A stretch of DNA of 10,079 nucleotides from a bacterium. Lineage in GTDB: Bacteria > Eisenbacteria > RBG-16-71-46. The notes under the pieces are model-generated. The model made no database searches. It was not told where the DNA came from and was given only the letters and a program-made list of their open reading frames with translations. The stretch spans positions 1 through 10,079 of the forward strand of contig JAYWEM010000080.1 in assembly GCA_043779265.1 (NCBI GenBank). The letters run 5' to 3'. Every line of letters starts with the position of its first letter. Positions within the stretch are counted from its first letter, which is position 1. The position numbers and the translations under genes are program-made. This document shows positions 2,114 through 10,079 of this stretch, one piece after another.

Positions 2114-3304
2114 CTAGTTCGACGCTGGCTTCGCGGGCACCGCGTTGTGCCGGATGCGCGGCCACGCCGCGCTGAACCACACGATACAGGCAAGCGTCCA
2201 GACGGCACCGCTGAGTGCATACCAGTGGAGTGCGCGCTCAGGTCGGAGTTCTCCGATGACGCGCGCGGCAAGCGCGGCGAGCAGCAGCGTCACGACCGAG
2301 GCCTTCAGGAGCAGGTGCTCGGACGGGAACCCGTGCTTACCATGGGCGATGACGACGCGCGTCGCGATTGCGAACGTGAGCAGGCCGAAGCCGCCGATGA
2401 AGACGATATGAAGTCCCGCGAGCGTCCAGTGTGACCCGAGTGCCGCGAGCCAGAGTCCGATCAGCATGAACGCGCCGGCGCCCCACATGCTCCACGCTGA
2501 GCGGTCGCCCCGCCCCGGGCCCCGGTGGAGCTTCCAGGCCATCGCCAGGACGATCGTCGCGGCAGCAGCACGTAGACGCGCGCCCCACAGCGGCGCGTCC
2601 ATCGCCTCCAGCGCGAACGCCCCCACGAACAGCGCGGCGATCGAGGCGTGGAATATGAACTTCGGCAGCCATTCGTGCGCCTTCGCGATACCCGGGATCT
2701 CGAGCGGGCCACGCATTCCGATGAACGTGGGCACGAGCAGCGAGCCGACGCCGAGCACGAGTGTCAGCAACATGCCGATCGACAGCAGATGGTCGGCGAA
2801 GCGAGGCGGGCCGAAGGCCTGCGCACCGAACGACTGGGCGATCAGCAGCACGCTGCCGGTGATTCCGAACAGCATCCCGAGGCCGACGTGGACGAACTCT
2901 GCTGGCGGCTTCTGCGAGGCTCGCGGCAGGCGACGCGCCATCGCGGCGACCACGCCGAGCAGCGCCAGCAGTGCGCAGACATGCGCCGCGCCATCCAGGC
3001 CGACCAGGGCGAATGGGCCGAAGAGCGCGAGGGCAGCGAACGCCGTTCCCGATTCGGCTCGCGTGGTCGGCCGACTGTGGGTGAGTCCGGGTAGAGCGGT
3101 GAGCAGGAAGCCGACGACGAAGCACAGCTCGAAACCCTGGATCATCAGCATGCGATGGAGCGCGGCGGGGTACGGCACCCAGCCGGGGAGGGCGACGAGC
3201 CACAAGCCGGCACCGAGGGCGGCATAGCCGACGCCGAGCGGGAAGAACATGCGGTAGGGCTCGATCGGAGGTCGCGACTGTGGAGTCACCATGATAGGAG
3301 TCAT
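2114..3304 (-). CDS. nnrS: NnrS-family multi-pass membrane protein (nitrosative-stress associated)
   Basis: About 12 hydrophobic segments. N-terminal PYRMFFPLG, HRMLMIQGF..FVVGFLLTALP and C-terminal LHIVFIGGFGLLTFAIATRVVIAHG match the NnrS signatures (FRPFF, GFLLTA, LH..G....RV..GH). The start is uncertain: 3367 (has GAGG upstream), 3304 or 3292. Confidence 0.88.
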   Translation of the reverse strand: MTPIMVTPQSRPPIEPYRMFFPLGVGYAALGAGLWLVALPGWVPYPAALHRMLMIQGFELCFVVGFLLTALPGLTHSRPTTRAESGTAFAALALFGPFALVGLDGAAHVCALLALLGVVAAMARRLPRASQKPPAEFVHVGLGMLFGITGSVLLIAQSFGAQAFGPPRFADHLLSIGMLLTLVLGVGSLLVPTFIGMRGPLEIPGIAKAHEWLPKFIFHASIAALFVGAFALEAMDAPLWGARLRAAAATIVLAMAWKLHRGPGRGDRSAWSMWGAGAFMLIGLWLAALGSHWTLAGLHIVFIGGFGLLTFAIATRVVIAHGKHGFPSEHLLLKASVVTLLLAALAARVIGELRPERALHWYALSGAVWTLACIVWFSAAWPRIRHNAVPAKPASN

Positions 3305-3426
3305 ACGCGGCCACCGTACTTTCGACAAGTGAGCGGCCTCTGGAGTGCCCTTCGGATTCTGATGCATGCCAGCTTCCTCGCTCCTGTGTCCTCAGCAGGG
3401 AGATGGTGATATCAGACGATCTCCAG

Positions 3427-3435: not shown

Positions 3436-3510
3436 GCCCAGCGCCCTGTAGGAATGACTCGAACCCGAGGCGAGGCCGATGCGCGAGCGGTTCCTGAAGC
3501 CGAGCCGGCC

Positions 3511-4098
3511 ATGAGCACCGAGACCATCGCCACGTTGCTGGCGGACCTTCGCAGAGGGGATCGCCGTGCACTCGATGCGTTGGTGCCACTTCTCTACGAC
3601 GAGTTGCGACGCATTGCACATCGACAGCGTGATCACCGTGCTTCGGCCGAGACGATGCAGACGACCGTGTTGGTCCACGAGGCCTATCTGCGCCTTGCCG
3701 AGAGAAGCCGCCTTCAGTTCGCCGACGAGGATCACTTCCTCGCCGCCTCGGCCACGATCATGCGTCACATCCTGGTCGATCACGCGCGCAGGCGACTGGC
3801 TCAGAAGCGAGGCGGCGGTGTGGCGCCATTGCCCATCGCCGATGATCTGGATGGCGGCGACGAGGCGCTCATGAGCGAGGCCGAGGGCCTGCTCGAACTC
3901 GACGGGGCACTGCTTCGCCTGGCCGAGCTGAGCCCTCGGCTCGCGGAGGTGGTCGAGATGCGGTTCTTCGCGGGCTTCAGCGTGGAGGAGACGGCACGCC
4001 TGATCGGCCGGGATGCGCGCACGATCAAGCGGGACTGGCAGAAGGCGAGGCTCCTGCTGGCGGGCATGCTCGGCAGGGATTCGGTGCTGGAACCATGA
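3511..4098 (+). CDS. ECF-type RNA polymerase sigma factor, kinase-associated type (TIGR02999 / ECF43-like), 195 aa
   Basis: IATLLADLRRGDRRALDALVPLLYDELRRIA...TMQTTVLVHEAYLRL...HFLAASATIMRHILVDHARRRLAQKRGGG...LDGALLRL...PRLAEVVEMRFFAGFSVEETA...TIKRDWQKARLLL is the characteristic pattern. The stop overlaps the kinase start (ATGA 4095-4098). Alternative start at 3454. Confidence 0.93.
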   Translation: MSTETIATLLADLRRGDRRALDALVPLLYDELRRIAHRQRDHRASAETMQTTVLVHEAYLRLAERSRLQFADEDHFLAASATIMRHILVDHARRRLAQKRGGGVAPLPIADDLDGGDEALMSEAEGLLELDGALLRLAELSPRLAEVVEMRFFAGFSVEETARLIGRDARTIKRDWQKARLLLAGMLGRDSVLEP

Positions 4099-6689
4099 GC
4101 GATTCCCCGGTGCAAGGCTCGCTTGACGCGCGGCTGGCTGCCGCTTGGCCCCGACTGGAACCGCTCCTCGACGCGCTGCTCGAGATCCGCGATCCAGCCG
4201 CGAGGGAAGCGCGACTCCGGAAAGTGGCGACCGCCGATCCCGAACTGGGCGCGCTGGCGGCCGAGCTCCTGCGCCGCATTCGCACGGATGAGGACGTGCC
4301 TTCGAACGATGCGGGTGGCCGTCTGCCGACTCTGCTGGATGATGCGTTCTCGTTGCGCAGCGACAAGCCGCCTCACTCCGAAGAGCCAGCGGAGCGCTGG
4401 GGGCCCTATCGACGAGTTCGGACGCTCGGTCAGGGCGGAACGGGGCTGGTGTTCCATGCCGAGCGTGACGACGGGCAGTTCGAACAGCGCGTCGCGGTCA
4501 AGGTGCTCCGGGTCGAGATCGACACGGCCGAGTCGCGCGAGCGACTCAAGCGCGAGCGTCAGATCCTCGCGCGGCTCGATCACCCCGGCATCTCGCGGCT
4601 GATCGATGGTGGCATCGGGGCCGATGGGAGGCCGTGGTTCGCCATGGAGTACGTCGAAGGCGAGCCGATCACGGCCTACATGAAGCGGCTCGATCTCGAG
4701 CTTGTCGAGCGGCTGGCGCTGTTCCGCCGAGTGGTCGCTGCCGTTCGATACCTGCATCAGAACCTGCTCGTCCATCGCGACCTCAAGCCCGCCAACGTGC
4801 TCGTGACCGAGTCCGGCGACGTGCGAGTGCTCGACCTCGGCATCGCGCGGATTCTCGCGGATGCGTCCGGCTCGACGCCCGAGTCCTCGCGCACCGAAGC
4901 GGCCATGACACCGGCGTATGCTGCGCCCGAGCAGATCATCGGACGGCCGACGACGACCGCCGTGGATGTGTTCGCCCTCGGTTTGCTCCTGCACGAGTCG
5001 CTCTCGGCGCACTCTGCCTTCCCCGAGGGGCGATTCGCCGCGCACTCGGCCGGCGATGTGGCGTCGTTCCGAACCGCCTCAGCCGCCGGAGTCGATCCGG
5101 ATCTCGATGCCATCATCGCACGCGCCCTGAGGCCCGAACCCGATGAGCGCTACCCGTCGGTCGAGGCGCTCGACGAGGATCTGGCGCGCTATCTCGAAGG
5201 CAGTCCGGTCGAGGCTCGCCGTGGCGGATGGCGCTATCGCGCATCCAAGTCGATACGACGTCACCGTGCGGCATGGGTGGCGGTCGCGGCGCTCGTGGTC
5301 ACCGTGGCGATCGGATTCTCGGTGACCCTCTGGCAGGCACGCGTGGCGCGCGAAGAGGCCGGGCGCGCCGAGGCGGTGAGCCGATTCCTGCTGCGCATCT
5401 TCGAGGGCGCCGATCCCGAGCTCGAGCAGGGTCCGACGACCACTGCTCGAACACTGCTGGATCGAGGGGCGGCGAGCATCCGCGAGGAACTGGCGCCGCA
5501 GCCGGAGCTGCGCGCCGAGATGTTGCACACACTGGGCGGGCTCTACTCCAAGTTAGGTGAGTACGACGAGGCGCACGGCCTGTTCGATGAGGCGTGGAGG
5601 CTGCGCCAGTCCCTCCCGCGTCTCTCGCTGCGCGATCGGCTCGCCAGTCTGACCGCACTGGCGCAAGCTGAGCAGGCGCGCGGACGTGGCGCCGAAGCCG
5701 AGAGCCTGTTCCGAAGCTCGCTCGCCCTGCTCGACGGTTCCGCGCCGCCGGTGCCCCTGGAACTGGCCACGGCGCGCAATGGCCTGGCGAGTGTGCTCAA
5801 CGAGTATGGCCAGGGTCAGGCGGCGGATTCGCTTGCGCGGCTTGCACTCGATGCGCGTCGCCGTCATGGCGCCGACACGCTGGAGGTGGCCGAGTCGCTC
5901 AATGAGCTGGCGACGATCGCCTACAGCCGCGGACGGTACGAGGAAGCCACCAAGTGGTTCACGCAGTCGCTCGCGCTGCTCGAGCACCGACTGGGCGAGT
6001 CCTCGCTCAAGGGGGCGGCGCTCCGAAGCAACTTGGCGACCGCCTTCGTCCAGCAGGGCCGACTCGCGGATGCGGAGCAGATGTTCCGCCGTGCGCTCGA
6101 GACTCAGCGCGCTCGACTGGGTAGTGGGCACCCTCGCGTGGCGATCAGCCTCGCTGGCTTGGCGGGAATCGCTTCGCGTCAGGAGCGCCTGGTCGAGGCG
6201 GACTCGCTCTACAGCGAGGTGCTGCGCGTCAATCAGCTCACCTATGGCGCTCGCCACCCGGAGGTGGCCAAAGCGCTCCACGATGCCGGACGCGCCAAGC
6301 TGCGATTGGGCCGGATCGGCGAGGCCGAATCCGCCTATCGCGAGTGCCTCTCGATCCTGACCGAGGTGCTGGGCCCCGGGCACCCGTTCGTCGGCAAGAC
6401 GCTCGGCAGTCTCGGTGATCTGCAGCGTGTGGCGAGACAGGCTGGGGCGGCCGAGGCCACCTACCGCCGCAGCCTCGGCATCCTCGCTCAGAGCCTCGGC
6501 CCGGAACACGAACTGACCGCACAGTCGGCCAGCGGTCTTGGGCGCGTGCTGCTCGAGTCCGGCCGCGCGGTCGAGGCGCTCCCCCATTTGCGCGCCGCCC
6601 ACGCCACGATGGCTCGGCAGTTCTCAGCTGATGATCCGAGAGTCGAGCAGGCACGGCAACTGCTCGAGGCCGCGCTCGAGCCCCGTTGA
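4095..6689 (+). CDS. Membrane-anchored Hanks-type Ser/Thr protein kinase with C-terminal TPR array, 864 aa
   Basis: Kinase motifs: GQGGTG Gly-loop, VAVK, ERQILARLDHPGI, HRDLKPAN, DLG (DFG position), TPAYAAPE, DVFALG, RYPS. One transmembrane helix (AAWVAVAALVVTVAIGFSVTLW), then roughly nine ~42-aa TPR-like repeats with LGxxHPxVA-type turns (LGSGHPRVA, YGARHPEVA, LGPGHPFVG, LGPEHELTA). Confidence 0.95.
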   Translation: MSDSPVQGSLDARLAAAWPRLEPLLDALLEIRDPAAREARLRKVATADPELGALAAELLRRIRTDEDVPSNDAGGRLPTLLDDAFSLRSDKPPHSEEPAERWGPYRRVRTLGQGGTGLVFHAERDDGQFEQRVAVKVLRVEIDTAESRERLKRERQILARLDHPGISRLIDGGIGADGRPWFAMEYVEGEPITAYMKRLDLELVERLALFRRVVAAVRYLHQNLLVHRDLKPANVLVTESGDVRVLDLGIARILADASGSTPESSRTEAAMTPAYAAPEQIIGRPTTTAVDVFALGLLLHESLSAHSAFPEGRFAAHSAGDVASFRTASAAGVDPDLDAIIARALRPEPDERYPSVEALDEDLARYLEGSPVEARRGGWRYRASKSIRRHRAAWVAVAALVVTVAIGFSVTLWQARVAREEAGRAEAVSRFLLRIFEGADPELEQGPTTTARTLLDRGAASIREELAPQPELRAEMLHTLGGLYSKLGEYDEAHGLFDEAWRLRQSLPRLSLRDRLASLTALAQAEQARGRGAEAESLFRSSLALLDGSAPPVPLELATARNGLASVLNEYGQGQAADSLARLALDARRRHGADTLEVAESLNELATIAYSRGRYEEATKWFTQSLALLEHRLGESSLKGAALRSNLATAFVQQGRLADAEQMFRRALETQRARLGSGHPRVAISLAGLAGIASRQERLVEADSLYSEVLRVNQLTYGARHPEVAKALHDAGRAKLRLGRIGEAESAYRECLSILTEVLGPGHPFVGKTLGSLGDLQRVARQAGAAEATYRRSLGILAQSLGPEHELTAQSASGLGRVLLESGRAVEALPHLRAAHATMARQFSADDPRVEQARQLLEAALEPR

Positions 6690-6729
6690 GCGAGGCGCCG
6701 GGGTACCTCCGCATTCCGGACGTTGGGCA

Positions 6730-6756
6730 TGTCCCCTTCTGCGCGGGGAATCCGTT
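6730..6756 (+). promoter_or_regulatory. Candidate ECF-dependent promoter upstream of the FG-GAP/S11 gene
   Basis: TGTCCC (6730-6735), 17 nt, CGTT (6753-6756) in the 134-bp gap after the kinase. A CGT-core -10 is common among ECF promoters. Assignment to this sigma is inference. Confidence 0.35.
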
Positions 6757-6823
6757 CACCGAGTAGGCGAAGTCCTGTGCGCCGCGCACACGGTCCGTGA
6801 CGCCCATTCCTCGGAGACCGATC

Positions 6824-9800
6824 ATGCGTAACCGACTGTTCGTGATGTCGAGAGATGCTGGCCCTCGGACCCGGTGCACGACCCCCCTGATCGCGGTCCT
6901 CCTGCTCGCGCTCAGCACCCCACCCGTCGTGCAGGCGCATCTGGCGTTGGTGCGCCAGGGACCCGAGAGCGCGGGCAGTCCCGGCCCCGGTGAGGAGTTC
7001 GGTCGGGCCCTGGCGGTCGGGGATTTCAACGGCGATGGGGTCGACGACCTGGCGACCGGCGCCCCTTTCGAGGCGAATGACGTCTTGCGCGATGCGGCAC
7101 ACGGTGCGGTGGTCATCTCGTTCGGGAGTGCGGTCGGACTCGTGCCCGAGGGCGCCCAGTGGCTCACCGTCGGCGACGTGGCCGATCTGAGCACTCGATA
7201 CGGCGAGGCACTCGCAGCCGGAGACTTCAACGGGGACGGTTTCTGCGATCTCGCGGTTGGTCTTCCCTATCGCGACGTCAACGGTCAGGTGAGCGCCGGC
7301 GAGGTCTGGGTGCACTACGGCTCTGCGACCGGCCTGAATCAGGTGCCGGGTATCGTGCTGGTCCAATCGAACGCCGGCGGTGCATCCGAGAGCCAGGACC
7401 TGTTCGGCCATGCGCTCGTCACGGGCGACTTCAACCTGGACGGCTTCGTCGACCTCGCTGTCGGCGCGCCGGGCGAGGACGCTGGCGCGGGAGCCGTGTT
7501 CCACTTCCGCGGATCAGCGGCGGGGATCACCGCCGCCGGTGCCGGCTGGTTCAAGCAGGCGAGCCTCGGGTCGGTCAACAGTCCGGGCGACGACATGGGC
7601 CGGGCGCTGGCCTCAGGACGATTCGACAACGACGCTTATCCCGACCTCGCCGTGGGCACGCCGCTCAAGGATGTCTCGGGGCTGGCCGACTGCGGTCGTG
7701 TCTACATCATCCGTGGCTCGCCGATCGGGCTCGTCAGCGCGGGTAGTGTCGCGATCGACCCAGTGAGCCTCGCCAACGACCCGCAGGCGGACGGTCGTTT
7801 CGGCTCGAGTCTGGCATCCGGGTACTTCTTCGATTCGAACGGACCGCTCGATCTGGCGGTCGGCGAACCCGAGGCCGATCTCGGGGGGCAGGGCGACGCG
7901 GGCCGAGTCGTCGTCCTCGACTTCGATCCCGTCCCGGCGCCATTGCTGGTGCCGCAGCAGGTCCGGACGATCACTCAGTTGATCGGCATTCCGGGGCAAG
8001 GGGCCGAGGCTGGGGATCGGTTCGGCTCGGCGCTGGCATCCGGGCGCTTCGATCTCGATGCCTTCGATGAGCTTGCGATCTCCGCTCCGTACGAGAACCT
8101 CACGCTCGGGGCCGAGGGAGCGTTCCTCGACGCGGGCATCGTGGTGCTCTACTACGGCAGCTCCACGGGCCTCGTCTCGGGCGCCTTCCAGACGTTCAGC
8201 TCGCAGACGCAGAACGACCAGACCGCGGCGGGCGAGTTCTTCGGATGGTCGCTGGCGTTCGGGCGCTTCGATGCTTCGGCCAGACGGAATCTGGCCATCG
8301 GCGTCATTCGCAAGGACTACCTGTCCTACGTGATCGGCGTGCCGACGACTGCCGATGCCGGGCTCGTCTACATCGTCGCGCCGTGGCGGCAGATCGAGAA
8401 CCTGCCGCATCGTGGCTCCGTGGTGCTCGACTGCGACGCGAACATCATCCACTCGCAGCGGATGTTCGACCGCATGCGACCAGCCAGCACGACCAAGACG
8501 ATGACGCTGTTGCTCGCCTGCGAGGCGATCCAGAACAATACGGCCGATCCGGATTACCTCTACACCGTGCCCGCTTGGGTCGCCGACAATGTCGTCGGCT
8601 CGCAGATGGGACTTGTGACCAACGAACGGATCACGCTCGAGAACTTGATGAAGGGTCTGATGCCGCCATCGGGCAATGACGCCTCGTATGCGATCGCGGA
8701 CATCCTCGAGGGCGACAATCACCCATGGGGAGGCAGCCACGAAACCACGGTGCCTACATTCCAGAATCGGATGAACGCCCGTGCCGCCGACTTCGGATTG
8801 ACACGGACCACCCTGACCAACCCATCGGGCCTGGACACGCAGAATCACTTCACGACGACGCGCGACTTCGCTGCACTCTCCTACTACGCGATGCAGAACA
8901 CGTGCGTGCGTCAGATCGTGGGCGCGCCCGGCTGGCTCGTCGATCACCTGCTGCCCGTGAACACCATGGAGGGCTGGCTCAGTCTCGGCGGTCCGAACCC
9001 GACGCCTGGCTACACGCCCGTCACCGAGTACTTCAACGCCGGCTACATGAGCAACATCCGGGGGTTCGTCCCCTCGGCCACTGGCATCAAGGGTGGTTTC
9101 ACGGGCGAAGGGAGGGTCACCGGTCTGTGGTCGGCCGAAGCTGCCCAAGGTGAAGTGTTCGCGGTGGCGTTCGGCATGCGGGACGCGGTCAACGGCGATC
9201 CGGTCACGGACTGTCTCGGCTGCACGGGTGGCAGCCTCTTGAAACTGGGTGAAGCGGTCTGCGAGGAGATCGACTTCCTCCCGCCTCCACCACCACCTCC
9301 GCCCGGACCCTTCGGAACCTTGACGGGCATTCCGACCTGTCGCGACTCGCTCCGGCGCCTCACCACGCACGGAGGCGAGACCAATCCGGGCAATGCACTC
9401 ATCGAGCTCTATCGCACGACACTCGTGACGCCGAGCGTCGGGGTTCGCGTCGCCATCGTGCGCAACAGCCAGATCACTCTCTCGCCACAGGAACAGGTCA
9501 GCTACGGCGCCGGAGCGATCAGCGCACATCAGGGGGCTCGAATCGTCAATCGCGGAGGTGGCATCGCGCAGGTGCTCGTCACGCAGACGCTTCCCTCGGG
9601 CACGACGCTCAGTGCGACGCTGCCGCCCTCGGGCAGCCTCATCACACCGAAGCATCCCTCCCCCGGATCCAATCACGTCATGACCATCCGCAATGTGGGG
9701 GCAGGCGACATCACACTCGAGGTGGATGAACTCGGATATCAGATCGAGCGTGGGCTGACGGCAGCGGGTCCTGGTACCCCGTCTTTCGTGGCCACGCTGC

Positions 9801-10079
9801 AGCGTGCCGGTCGTTTCAGCGATGAGGTGATGGGCGCCTATGTCGTCGGTACGGGCTCGGCGTGTGCGGACCCTCTGGACCTGGTGATTCGGCCTCCCGG
9901 CGCCACGGTGAGCGTTCCGGGAGATGGCGGGATCCCCGCCGGTCATGATCGCTCGATGCTGACGCTTCGGCCGGCGCAACCCAATCCGTCGCGCGGCATG
10001 ACACGTCTGGGCTTCGACCTGATGCGCGATGCCGTGGTGGAGGTGATCGTGTTCGATGCCCAGGGTCGGCGCACCCGCA
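6824..10079 (+). CDS. Large exported multidomain protein, partial (>1085 aa): signal peptide + 7 FG-GAP repeats + peptidase S11/PBP-type serine hydrolase domain + Pro8 linker + beta-rich domain + FlgD-Ig/T9SS-CTD-like tail
   Basis: ATG 6824 with GGAGA at 6813-6817. Manual translation shows no stop through 10079. Signal ...PLIAVLLLALSTPPVVQA|H. FG-GAP units (e.g. FGRALAVGDFNGDGVDDLATGAP). PASTTK (Ser codon 8486), SGND (8669), NPSGLD (8819), GIKGGFT (Lys codon 9089). Tail LRPAQPNPSRGMTRLGFDLMRDAVVEVIVFDAQGRRTR. Absent from the ORF track because there is no stop in the window. Confidence 0.93.
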   Translation, partial: MRNRLFVMSRDAGPRTRCTTPLIAVLLLALSTPPVVQAHLALVRQGPESAGSPGPGEEFGRALAVGDFNGDGVDDLATGAPFEANDVLRDAAHGAVVISFGSAVGLVPEGAQWLTVGDVADLSTRYGEALAAGDFNGDGFCDLAVGLPYRDVNGQVSAGEVWVHYGSATGLNQVPGIVLVQSNAGGASESQDLFGHALVTGDFNLDGFVDLAVGAPGEDAGAGAVFHFRGSAAGITAAGAGWFKQASLGSVNSPGDDMGRALASGRFDNDAYPDLAVGTPLKDVSGLADCGRVYIIRGSPIGLVSAGSVAIDPVSLANDPQADGRFGSSLASGYFFDSNGPLDLAVGEPEADLGGQGDAGRVVVLDFDPVPAPLLVPQQVRTITQLIGIPGQGAEAGDRFGSALASGRFDLDAFDELAISAPYENLTLGAEGAFLDAGIVVLYYGSSTGLVSGAFQTFSSQTQNDQTAAGEFFGWSLAFGRFDASARRNLAIGVIRKDYLSYVIGVPTTADAGLVYIVAPWRQIENLPHRGSVVLDCDANIIHSQRMFDRMRPASTTKTMTLLLACEAIQNNTADPDYLYTVPAWVADNVVGSQMGLVTNERITLENLMKGLMPPSGNDASYAIADILEGDNHPWGGSHETTVPTFQNRMNARAADFGLTRTTLTNPSGLDTQNHFTTTRDFAALSYYAMQNTCVRQIVGAPGWLVDHLLPVNTMEGWLSLGGPNPTPGYTPVTEYFNAGYMSNIRGFVPSATGIKGGFTGEGRVTGLWSAEAAQGEVFAVAFGMRDAVNGDPVTDCLGCTGGSLLKLGEAVCEEIDFLPPPPPPPPGPFGTLTGIPTCRDSLRRLTTHGGETNPGNALIELYRTTLVTPSVGVRVAIVRNSQITLSPQEQVSYGAGAISAHQGARIVNRGGGIAQVLVTQTLPSGTTLSATLPPSGSLITPKHPSPGSNHVMTIRNVGAGDITLEVDELGYQIERGLTAAGPGTPSFVATLQRAGRFSDEVMGAYVVGTGSACADPLDLVIRPPGATVSVPGDGGIPAGHDRSMLTLRPAQPNPSRGMTRLGFDLMRDAVVEVIVFDAQGRRTR
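6998..8377 (+). repeat. Seven FG-GAP (integrin alpha-type) repeats, predicted 7-bladed beta-propeller
   Basis: Blade starts: FG 6998, YG 7199, FG 7403, MG 7595, FG 7799, FG 8021, FG 8240. Each is followed by xxLxxG(D/R/Y)F..., then LA(V/I/T)G/S-x-P (degenerate GVI in blade 7) and a GxVxxxxG-type strand. DFNxDGxxD Ca2+-binding-type loops occur in blades 1-3. Confidence 0.9.
9281..9304 (+). repeat. Poly-proline (Pro8) interdomain linker
   Basis: ccg cct cca cca cca cct ccg ccc in frame, directly after the S11 domain. Confidence 0.9.

Follow-up and report, generated by a model that had tools for sequence, protein, structure and literature searches.

The 10,079-nt contig JAYWEM010000080.1 of assembly GCA_043779265.1, from a member of Candidatus Eisenbacteria (this whole stretch is called the window below), ends in a gene, on the + strand from position 6824, that fuses an integrin-like FG-GAP propeller to a penicillin-binding protein (PBP) fold of peptidase family S11 with an altered active site, and that belongs to an apparently undescribed family. 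S11 enzymes such as PBP5/DacA, DacB and PBP7 act on the cell's own wall and are textbook housekeeping enzymes and classic penicillin targets; PBP5/DacA and PBP7 are compact periplasmic or membrane-associated DD-carboxy- or endopeptidases. We observed a different layout, shared by 116 distinct relatives, of signal peptide, seven-bladed propeller, S11/PBP fold, beta-sandwich domain and C-terminal tail. The catalytic residues Ser555, Lys558, Ser616 and Lys756 are conserved, the threonine of the third active-site motif (KTG) is lost family-wide, the host encodes SprA, PorV and PorU of a type IX secretion system (T9SS), and the fusion is an accessory gene. Its features are:

6824..6937, + strand: predicted Sec signal peptide, residues 1-38 (basic N-region and hydrophobic stretch, by inspection)
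6938..8386, + strand: seven-bladed FG-GAP beta-propeller of integrin-alpha type, residues 39-521 (PF01839, E 6e-36; blade motifs; structure match)
8390..9262, + strand: S11/PBP fold, residues 523-813, with no linker after the propeller (PF00768, phmmer, structure match)
8486..8497, + strand: motif 1, S555-T-T-K558 (aligned to S-T-T-K of K15; nucleophile and general base by homology)
8669..8677, + strand: motif 2, S616-G-N618 (sequence; SGN in 89 of 116 relatives)
9089..9097, + strand: motif 3, K756-G-G758, in place of KTG (sequence, family counts)
9215..9217, + strand: L798, in the column of Arg248 of PBP5/K15 (column mapping by alignment)
9281..9304, + strand: Pro8 linker, residues 820-827 (sequence)
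9305..9895, + strand: all-beta domain with a jelly-roll core, residues 828-1024 (AlphaFold2; no Pfam family)
9959..10079, + strand: first part of a FlgD-Ig/T9SS type A-like C-terminal domain, cut by the contig end (PF13860 on the database copy P0002)

The fusion gene runs as a single frame without a stop from the ATG at 6824, preceded by GGAGA at 6813-6817, to the end of the contig at 10079 and encodes 1085 amino acids (aa). This copy is short of the final 51 residues; the database copy (P0002, 1136 aa, 100% identical over the region searched) completes the FlgD_ig domain (PF13860: 36.7 bits, cut-off 27). An initial annotation of the window had proposed that one frame joins the signal peptide, propeller, PBP domain, Pro8, beta domain and tail, and this was confirmed, as were its positions for S555-T-T-K, S616-G-N, NPSGL (at N666), K756-G-G and Pro8; the FG-GAP, Peptidase_S11 and FlgD_ig families that it expected were all matched in Pfam (FlgD_ig on P0002). 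It had also raised a chimeric junction near 8380-8420. A chimeric assembly is ruled out by a single Logan contig, present in two sequencing runs (X1 and X2, from which the window DNA may come), that covers 6500-10079 with 0 differences and 0 joints, and by conservation of the propeller/enzyme junction, P520-W521-x-Q523, at 97-98% in 121 proteins. The annotation knew of no characterised protein of this architecture; likewise, we found no description of it in the full-text literature searched, from which subscription journals are largely absent and supplements excluded, so that a mention there is possible. Database names of family members are limited to FG-GAP repeat, T9SS sorting-domain or hypothetical proteins.

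The predicted signal peptide is likely cleaved after A38, a residue that is 87% conserved among the 121 proteins and is followed by a conserved H-L-x-L-x-R-Q-G motif. Blade motifs (F/Y/M-G-x-A/S-L) occur seven times, at residues 59, 126, 194, 258, 326, 400 and 473, and in an AlphaFold2 model of the protein, built from 25 homologues (mean pLDDT 81, pTM 0.72), compared with 48,161 solved chains, residues 39-524 match the integrin alpha propeller 4wjk_A (Z 38.1, root-mean-square deviation (rmsd) 2.8, 400 residues aligned); the top Foldseek matches are all integrin alpha chains. FG-GAP propellers are Ca2+-binding interaction domains. The annotation had read this one as such: the seven repeats are there, but a full DxN/DxDG calcium loop is present in blades 1-3 only, being partial in blades 4-6 and degenerate in blade 7. 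Fusion of FG-GAP repeats to a secreted peptidase has a precedent in Tryp-(FG-GAP)3 of Streptomyces avermitilis (PMC2605481). Unlike in integrin alpha chains and such peptidase fusions, the propeller here is N-terminal and passes without a linker onto a PBP fold, and only three of its blades have a complete calcium loop. P-W and the catalytic serine are spaced 35 residues apart in 96 of the 104 proteins in which this could be measured, indicating that the propeller is joined without a linker.

As the annotation had anticipated, the middle domain models as a PBP fold. Residues 523-812 match the Streptomyces K15 DD-transpeptidase (1es2_A) with Z 30.1 and rmsd 2.2 over 255 of 260 residues, and 3mfd_B with Z 28.9; Peptidase_S11 (PF00768) covers residues 537-694 (E 7e-23, 81.7 bits, cut-off 27.6), and phmmer finds the K15 enzyme at E 1e-15. 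An Atlas search gave S11 leads only, all <0.9. In common with E. coli PBP5/DacA, B. subtilis DacB and PBP7, the protein is over the PF00768 cut-off, and a profile comparison reaches DacB (3mfd) at E 9e-43. Unlike these enzymes it lies far under the cut-offs of all NCBIfam equivalog S11 models (best 48 bits, against 610), no PBP5_C stalk was matched, and both motif 3 and the N-x-N rim are altered. C537 and C813 are both present in 117 of 121 proteins and likely form a disulfide; this Cys pair, Trp585 and Phe548 are specific to the family.

We assembled the family from pooled search results. A search with the S11 region gave 38 matches among proteins of 596-1899 aa, most of them combining FG-GAP and S11. 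A profile of 25 of these was compared with 1.84 billion representatives, and its 150 listed matches added many more full-length proteins. After pooling there were 202 sequences, 140 of which match the family S11 profile. Proteins scoring >150 bits with at least two propeller motifs before the S11 domain form the family set (121 proteins, 116 distinct domains); P0131, P0133 and P0137, being fragments or of another architecture, were taken out manually, and P0006, P0113 and L096 fell out on motif count. A FastTree phylogeny that sets the 116 domains beside 13 S11 fusions of other kinds and 110 stand-alone S11s places the family in one clade (support 0.952) that contains no outsider. Its sister clade is small and consists of further S11 fusions whose aligned motif 3 is KGG (P0169, L030, P0038, P0039), and the next outgroups are FG-GAP fusions that retain KTG (P0133, P0115). 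Named members belong to Ca. Eisenbacteria (P0016; also P0304, in the cluster of P0004, which is itself 80% identical to the query in the S11 region), Krumholzibacteriota (L002), Verrucomicrobiota (the P0021 cluster) and Planctomycetota/Phycisphaerales (P0022, P0026).

Fused S11s outside the family show a variety of partners. Those next to it in the tree (P0169, P0038, P0039, L030, P0133 and P0115) look secreted. P0169 carries HYR, an S12 domain and polyglycine-hydrolase-like repeats; P0133 carries a thermolysin M4 domain, and P0038 and P0039 TSP3 or dockerin-like repeats; the sister-clade gene L030:8603-10750 appears split over several frames. P0034, P0036 and P0037, labelled Chloroflexota, join S11 to glycosyl hydrolase family 8 and retain KTG.

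Quantification of the active-site motifs revealed that 114 of 116 relatives retain all four of Ser555, Lys558, Ser616 and Lys756 (104 retain N618 as well; the motif 1 serine and lysine are each conserved at 98% in the 121 proteins), indicating that the family is under selection as an enzyme. In contrast, motif 3 is KPG in 49, KGG in 45, KTG in 7, KDG in 4, KSG in 4, KRG in 3 and something else in 4 of the 116, so that T or S is found in 11 only and not in the query, whereas KTG is kept in 94 of 110 and 73 of 80 ordinary S11 controls. The first control set consists of the stand-alone S11s with an SxxK match among 116 shorter matches, many of them close kin; the second was taken from the loci of a metagenome scan (80 loci, no family member). 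The N-x-N-x-L stretch before KTG is also eroded: its first Asn is conserved at 80-84% and its second at 87-99% in the controls, and the second at 45% in the family. In the Arg248 column, Arg is present in 22 of 116 family members as against 79 of 110 stand-alone S11s, and the query has Leu798. The annotation had noted the KGG correctly but had treated it as an ordinary third motif. With KTG gone from the query, we regard it as a member of an S11-derived subfamily and not as a canonical DD-carboxypeptidase. Two family members, P0139 and P0136, seem to have lost their motifs (RAPM/LTD/HAS; motif 1 without Lys) and are possible pseudoenzymes.

What these residues do elsewhere bears on how the change is read. 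Thr498 of gonococcal PBP2 is, we take it, the KTG threonine, which fits the placement of A501. Thr498 rotates to engage the cephalosporin carboxylate, with A501 placed just after the motif (PMC13020984), and Arg248 of PBP5 binds the C-3 carboxylate of penicillin (PMC4979060). According to Table 1 of PMC12073871, nearly all beta-lactamases and PBPs have K-T/S-G, the exceptions being HTG in one DD-peptidase and KAG in one beta-lactamase; superfamily members that do not act on C-terminal carboxylates have HGG (a D-aminopeptidase) or WGG (two esterases). From this and the conservation patterns we infer that selection of a terminal carboxylate has been lost in the family.

The protein is equipped for export. 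A tail of the PNP type, as the annotation had seen, marks T9SS-type cargo in FCB-group (Fibrobacteres-Chlorobi-Bacteroidetes) bacteria, and the annotation had suggested that it might route the protein beyond the outer membrane. Because the host encodes SprA (2132 aa, 467 bits, cut-off 200; G000:C46, L071 and L072), nine frames over the cut-off for the PorV family and PorU (457 bits, cut-off 420; G000:C127:11224-16835, L073 and L222), which adjoins a PorV-family gene, together with 151 open reading frames (ORFs) that match a tail profile built from the family (149 at the C-terminus), such export is likely, by analogy with the Bacteroidota system. The host also has 116 FlgD_ig and 81 TIGR04183 matches, the tail of the same-genus orthologue (G001:C158) scores 31.9 bits for TIGR04183 (cut-off 23), and PorU is over the cut-off in 12 of 13 genomes searched. 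SprA is present in a Krumholzibacteriota genome as well. In Bacteroidota, T9SS cargo crosses via SprA, PorV shuttles it, and cleavage by PorU then releases or anchors it (PMC10202324). With Bacteroidota type A cargo (TIGR04183/PF18962) the fusion shares a signal peptide, an Ig-like C-terminal domain and a host with SprA, PorV and PorU; it differs in that its host is nearest to Ca. Eisenbacteria by homologue, that GldK, GldM and GldN were not found, that its tail scores as FlgD_ig, and that relatives in other phyla bear three other tails. The host possibly has a motor-less T9SS with about 150 cargo proteins, and no paper pairing 'Eisenbacteria' with 'T9SS' was found in the full-text literature searched.

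Sorting the 116 relatives by regular expressions gave 83 FlgD-Ig/T9SS-like, 13 Verrucomicrobia-type and 11 dockerin-like tails, 6 of a further kind and 3 that are other or cut. The tail type largely follows the clade, with the host label of each class taken from few named members; the further kind, which has no named member, we presume to be a third type of the PVC (Planctomycetes-Verrucomicrobia-Chlamydiae) group. Dockerin_1 matches of the dockerin-like tails lie under the cut-off. Searches for the three PVC tails on unrelated proteins, which were mostly uninformative, found two tail-only matches in one Planctomycetota genome and otherwise none. No part of the family varies more than the beta domain ahead of the tail (median 21% identity to the query). 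Folded alone by AlphaFold2 (199 residues, pLDDT 93), its best structure match is the C-terminal jelly roll of the Tk-SP protease (Z 9.3, 99 of 199 residues), with GOLD and PPC-type domains scoring close behind; the jelly-roll matches cover only about half its length and no listed fold covers all of it, and neither Foldseek (no convincing match) nor the Atlas (no usable match) added to this.

We scanned 123 of the 151 tail ORFs (at least 300 aa, without the fusion and two others) at E 1e-8. The matches comprise S8 (seven), C25 (three), M43 (two) and M12, M14, M28 and M36 (one each) peptidases, a nuclease, amylases, seven GSDH-type and eight galactose-oxidase-like proteins; 63 have no family match. 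FG-GAP repeats occur on five other host cargo proteins, including S8, M12 and C25 peptidases. The secretome thus looks macromolecule-scavenging and the propellers look like a general accessory, which weakens the suggestion in the annotation that the propeller is a specific targeting module. The galactose-oxidase-like proteins (L196, L199, L203, L205, L206, L213, L223 and L234) are tail-bearing with an E-set domain, seven of them with Kelch propellers, and represent an expanded surface family.

The fusion is distributed patchily and in multiple copies. Among 60 relatives of the host we counted 17 fusion genes in 10 genomes, with four each in two genomes; paralogues within a genome are 34-64% identical in the S11 domain, and motif 2 varies among divergent paralogues as SGN, SGC, SNN, SAN or SDN. 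All ten carrier relatives also have a separate short S11 (E 6e-43 or better), indicating that the fusion is accessory. In the host assembly, which is 92% complete, the fusion is the sole PF00768 match and no S13 was found; since PF00768 is matched in 55 of the 61 genomes searched, an assembly gap is the likelier cause of the missing second S11. The fusion as a replacement of housekeeping DacA is unlikely, given the separate short S11 of the ten other carriers. Scans farther afield were less productive: a genome contig scan, flooded by FG-GAP proteins, had among its 70 loci a single full member (L002) and a single gene of the sister clade (L030), and scans of 42 genomes of the Phycisphaerales-genome class and 301 of the Verrucomicrobiales-genome class gave nothing at E 1e-60, with only 2-18 candidates scored per genome, making them uninformative.

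We tentatively favor, as a proposal somewhat short of an even chance, a serine peptidase exported to the surface that would form its acyl-enzyme on D-Ala and cleave amides or cross-bridges in the wall debris of other bacteria, adding to what L-specific proteases can do. After Sec export, recognition of the tail would lead, as in Bacteroidota, to passage through SprA, shuttling by PorV and cleavage by PorU, and finally to surface anchoring or release. Ser555 would react with a D-Ala donor to form an acyl-enzyme, as in other S11 enzymes. Since the carboxylate-binding threonine, and in this protein also the Arg248 equivalent, is gone, the leaving group would be a continuing peptide or an amide instead of a terminal D-Ala carboxylate, and the enzyme would act as an endopeptidase or amidase on cross-bridges. 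This would free peptides otherwise closed to the L-specific S8, M14, M28, M36 and M43 proteases, while the rigidly attached propeller and the variable jelly-roll domain may bind substrate or surface partners. The wall debris of other bacteria would then be used as food. Scavenging is favored over predation because the other cargo consists of general proteases and nucleases, with no recognized lytic enzymes.

Several observations weigh against this proposal. GldM was found in 0 of 13 genomes and GldN in 0 of 6, with the controls also silent for both; GldK was found neither in the host nor over the cut-off in 6 genomes, and GldL was not searched, so that, measured against Bacteroidota, the export route lacks parts. 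P0002 falls below listing for TIGR04183 (E 1e-5) and PF18962 (E 0.5), although the orthologues G001:C158, P0010 and P0016 pass TIGR04183. Searches of one Verrucomicrobiales and three Planctomycetota genomes found no SprA, suggesting that members from these phyla either leave by a different route or remain periplasmic. The 123 cargo proteins, 63 of which lack any family match, showed no lysozyme, amidase, M23 or NlpC/P60 domain, and the host genome no Amidase_2; in the absence of another recognizable peptidoglycan hydrolase, a wall-degrading pathway around the fusion is not evident. At the active site, the contrast in the Arg248 column is weak: with a slip of +/-1 column, the family has Arg in 34 of 116 members, one control set in 77 of 101 and the other in only 34 of 77, and the preceding loop aligns poorly. 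Lys756 and Thr760 are conserved at 99% and 83% and may still hold a carboxylate. Finally, KPG is found in 4 of 110 stand-alone S11s.

A possible alternative, though a less probable one, is an exported serine hydrolase that works off peptidoglycan, on other D-amino-acid peptides, amides, esters or Gly-rich peptides, as do several S12 enzymes, with the paralogues serving different substrates. Loss of the KTG threonine parallels the HGG and WGG of the D-aminopeptidase and of EstB and a carboxylesterase, which share the serine acyl-enzyme superfamily fold and also lack the motif 3 hydroxyl (PMC12073871, Table 1). Several positions at the active-site rim are remodeled, the paralogues differ in motif 2, and the cargo includes no other recognized wall-lytic protein. 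On the other hand, the fold and motifs 1 and 2 remain very near those of DD-peptidases (rmsd 2.2 to K15), the family retains Lys756, and S11s bearing KTG form the nearest outgroups. The S12 enzymes also differ in having Tyr in motif 2; because the fusion family is S11-derived and keeps SxN and the motif 3 Lys, its change in motif 3 looks parallel to and independent of theirs.

It is improbable that the protein is instead a periplasmic editor of the host's own peptidoglycan, with the tail as an envelope tether. Such a role would fit the sole PF00768 match and missing S13 of the assembly, the missing T9SS motor genes and the occurrence of members in phyla where SprA was not found (four genomes searched). 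Against it stand the incompleteness of the assembly and the short S11s described above, the patchy distribution with its paralogue expansions, and the presence of SprA, PorV and PorU.

Still less probable is a contact-dependent or secreted weapon against living Gram-positive neighbors, in competition or predation. An extracellular enzyme can reach exposed Gram-positive walls, and there are up to four divergent paralogues per genome, but the 123 scanned cargo proteins include no recognized lytic enzyme, which also weakens the predation proposed in the annotation, and no conserved neighbor fit for an immunity gene was present among 38 ORFs scanned (neighboring and family ORFs). We consider equally doubtful an extracellular transpeptidase that, like K15 but outside the wall, would join D-Ala donors to amine acceptors carried by surface proteins or by the matrix. 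The K15 DD-transpeptidase (PDB 1skf, 1es2) is the closest solved structure and shares the fold, S-T-T-K, S-G-x and a beta-hairpin before motif 3. T556 of that motif is found in 100 of 116 family members but also in 40 of 110 ordinary S11s; K15 is a 262-residue single domain that retains KTG and Arg248, whereas the fusion bears KGG and, in the Arg column, Leu, and adds a propeller, a beta domain and a tail of the export type; no extracellular D-Ala donor is known for the host.

Least probable is a slow beta-lactamase or the surface beta-lactam trap of the annotation, which the PBP fold, the intact nucleophile and a weak match to the class A beta-lactamase family PF13354 (19.3 bits, cut-off 22) would allow: like a plain DD-carboxypeptidase it is disfavored by the family-wide loss of the KTG threonine and the alteration of other conserved pocket residues, the equivalents of the carboxylate-contacting Thr498 of PBP2 and Arg248 of PBP5 being absent (PMC13020984, PMC4979060) and nearly all tabulated beta-lactamases having K-T/S-G, with one KAG (PMC12073871, Table 1), and a multidomain protein of 1100 residues would be a costly stoichiometric sink.

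A bolder version of the debris-cutting proposal is rather unlikely to hold in full. Here the PBP fold would have been turned outward: without a grip on the free carboxylate it would cut the cross-bridges of others (Gly/Ala bridges, amidated stems), spare the host's own wall while in the periplasm and escape beta-lactams. The cassette would have moved between FCB-related and PVC phyla, taking on the C-terminal tag of each host, and the Verrucomicrobia-, Phycisphaerae- and Planctomycetota-type tails would represent undescribed export or anchoring routes.

Upstream of the fusion gene, the window holds the following genes:

3-1427, - strand: secreted-looking repeat protein, cut by the contig start (weak beta-propeller repeat TIGR04275 under the cut-off; no Pfam family)
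1219-2097, + strand: TerB-family gene, start probably later than 1219, converging on the NnrS gene
2114-3367, - strand: NnrS gene, converging on the TerB-family gene
3454-4098, + strand: extracytoplasmic function (ECF) sigma factor (TIGR02999 over the cut-off), overlapping the kinase gene
4095-6689, + strand: Ser/Thr kinase-tetratricopeptide repeat gene, 134 bp upstream of the fusion gene

The host genome has four such ECF-kinase pairs and 37 such kinases. Kinases lie near the fusion gene in 4 of 16 relative loci and at L030, and 22 of the 151 cargo genes are within 5 kb of one; with kinases so frequent, regulation of the fusion by the ECF/kinase pair is not established. In one relative (L102; G053:C1:1095000-1114999) two family paralogues in divergent orientation lie on either side of a Ser/Thr kinase gene. 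No sigma-70 promoter or terminator was found in 6500-7000; the only repeats found are short and chance-like. A conserved operon is ruled out, the 38 ORFs at or beside family genes matching unrelated families.

A monophyletic, cross-phylum branch of S11, likely exported, mostly without the otherwise near-invariant threonine of KTG and expanded into divergent paralogues, would be a natural experiment on how PBPs change their substrate and their antibiotic sensitivity. Family members with natural KTG (among them L110, L111, P0080 and P0096), KPG and KGG allow direct comparison within one family, and the swapped tails point to candidate surface-sorting signals in PVC bacteria. If foreign peptidoglycan is what the enzyme cuts, these uncultured lineages would gain a concrete role in the recycling of bacterial cell walls.

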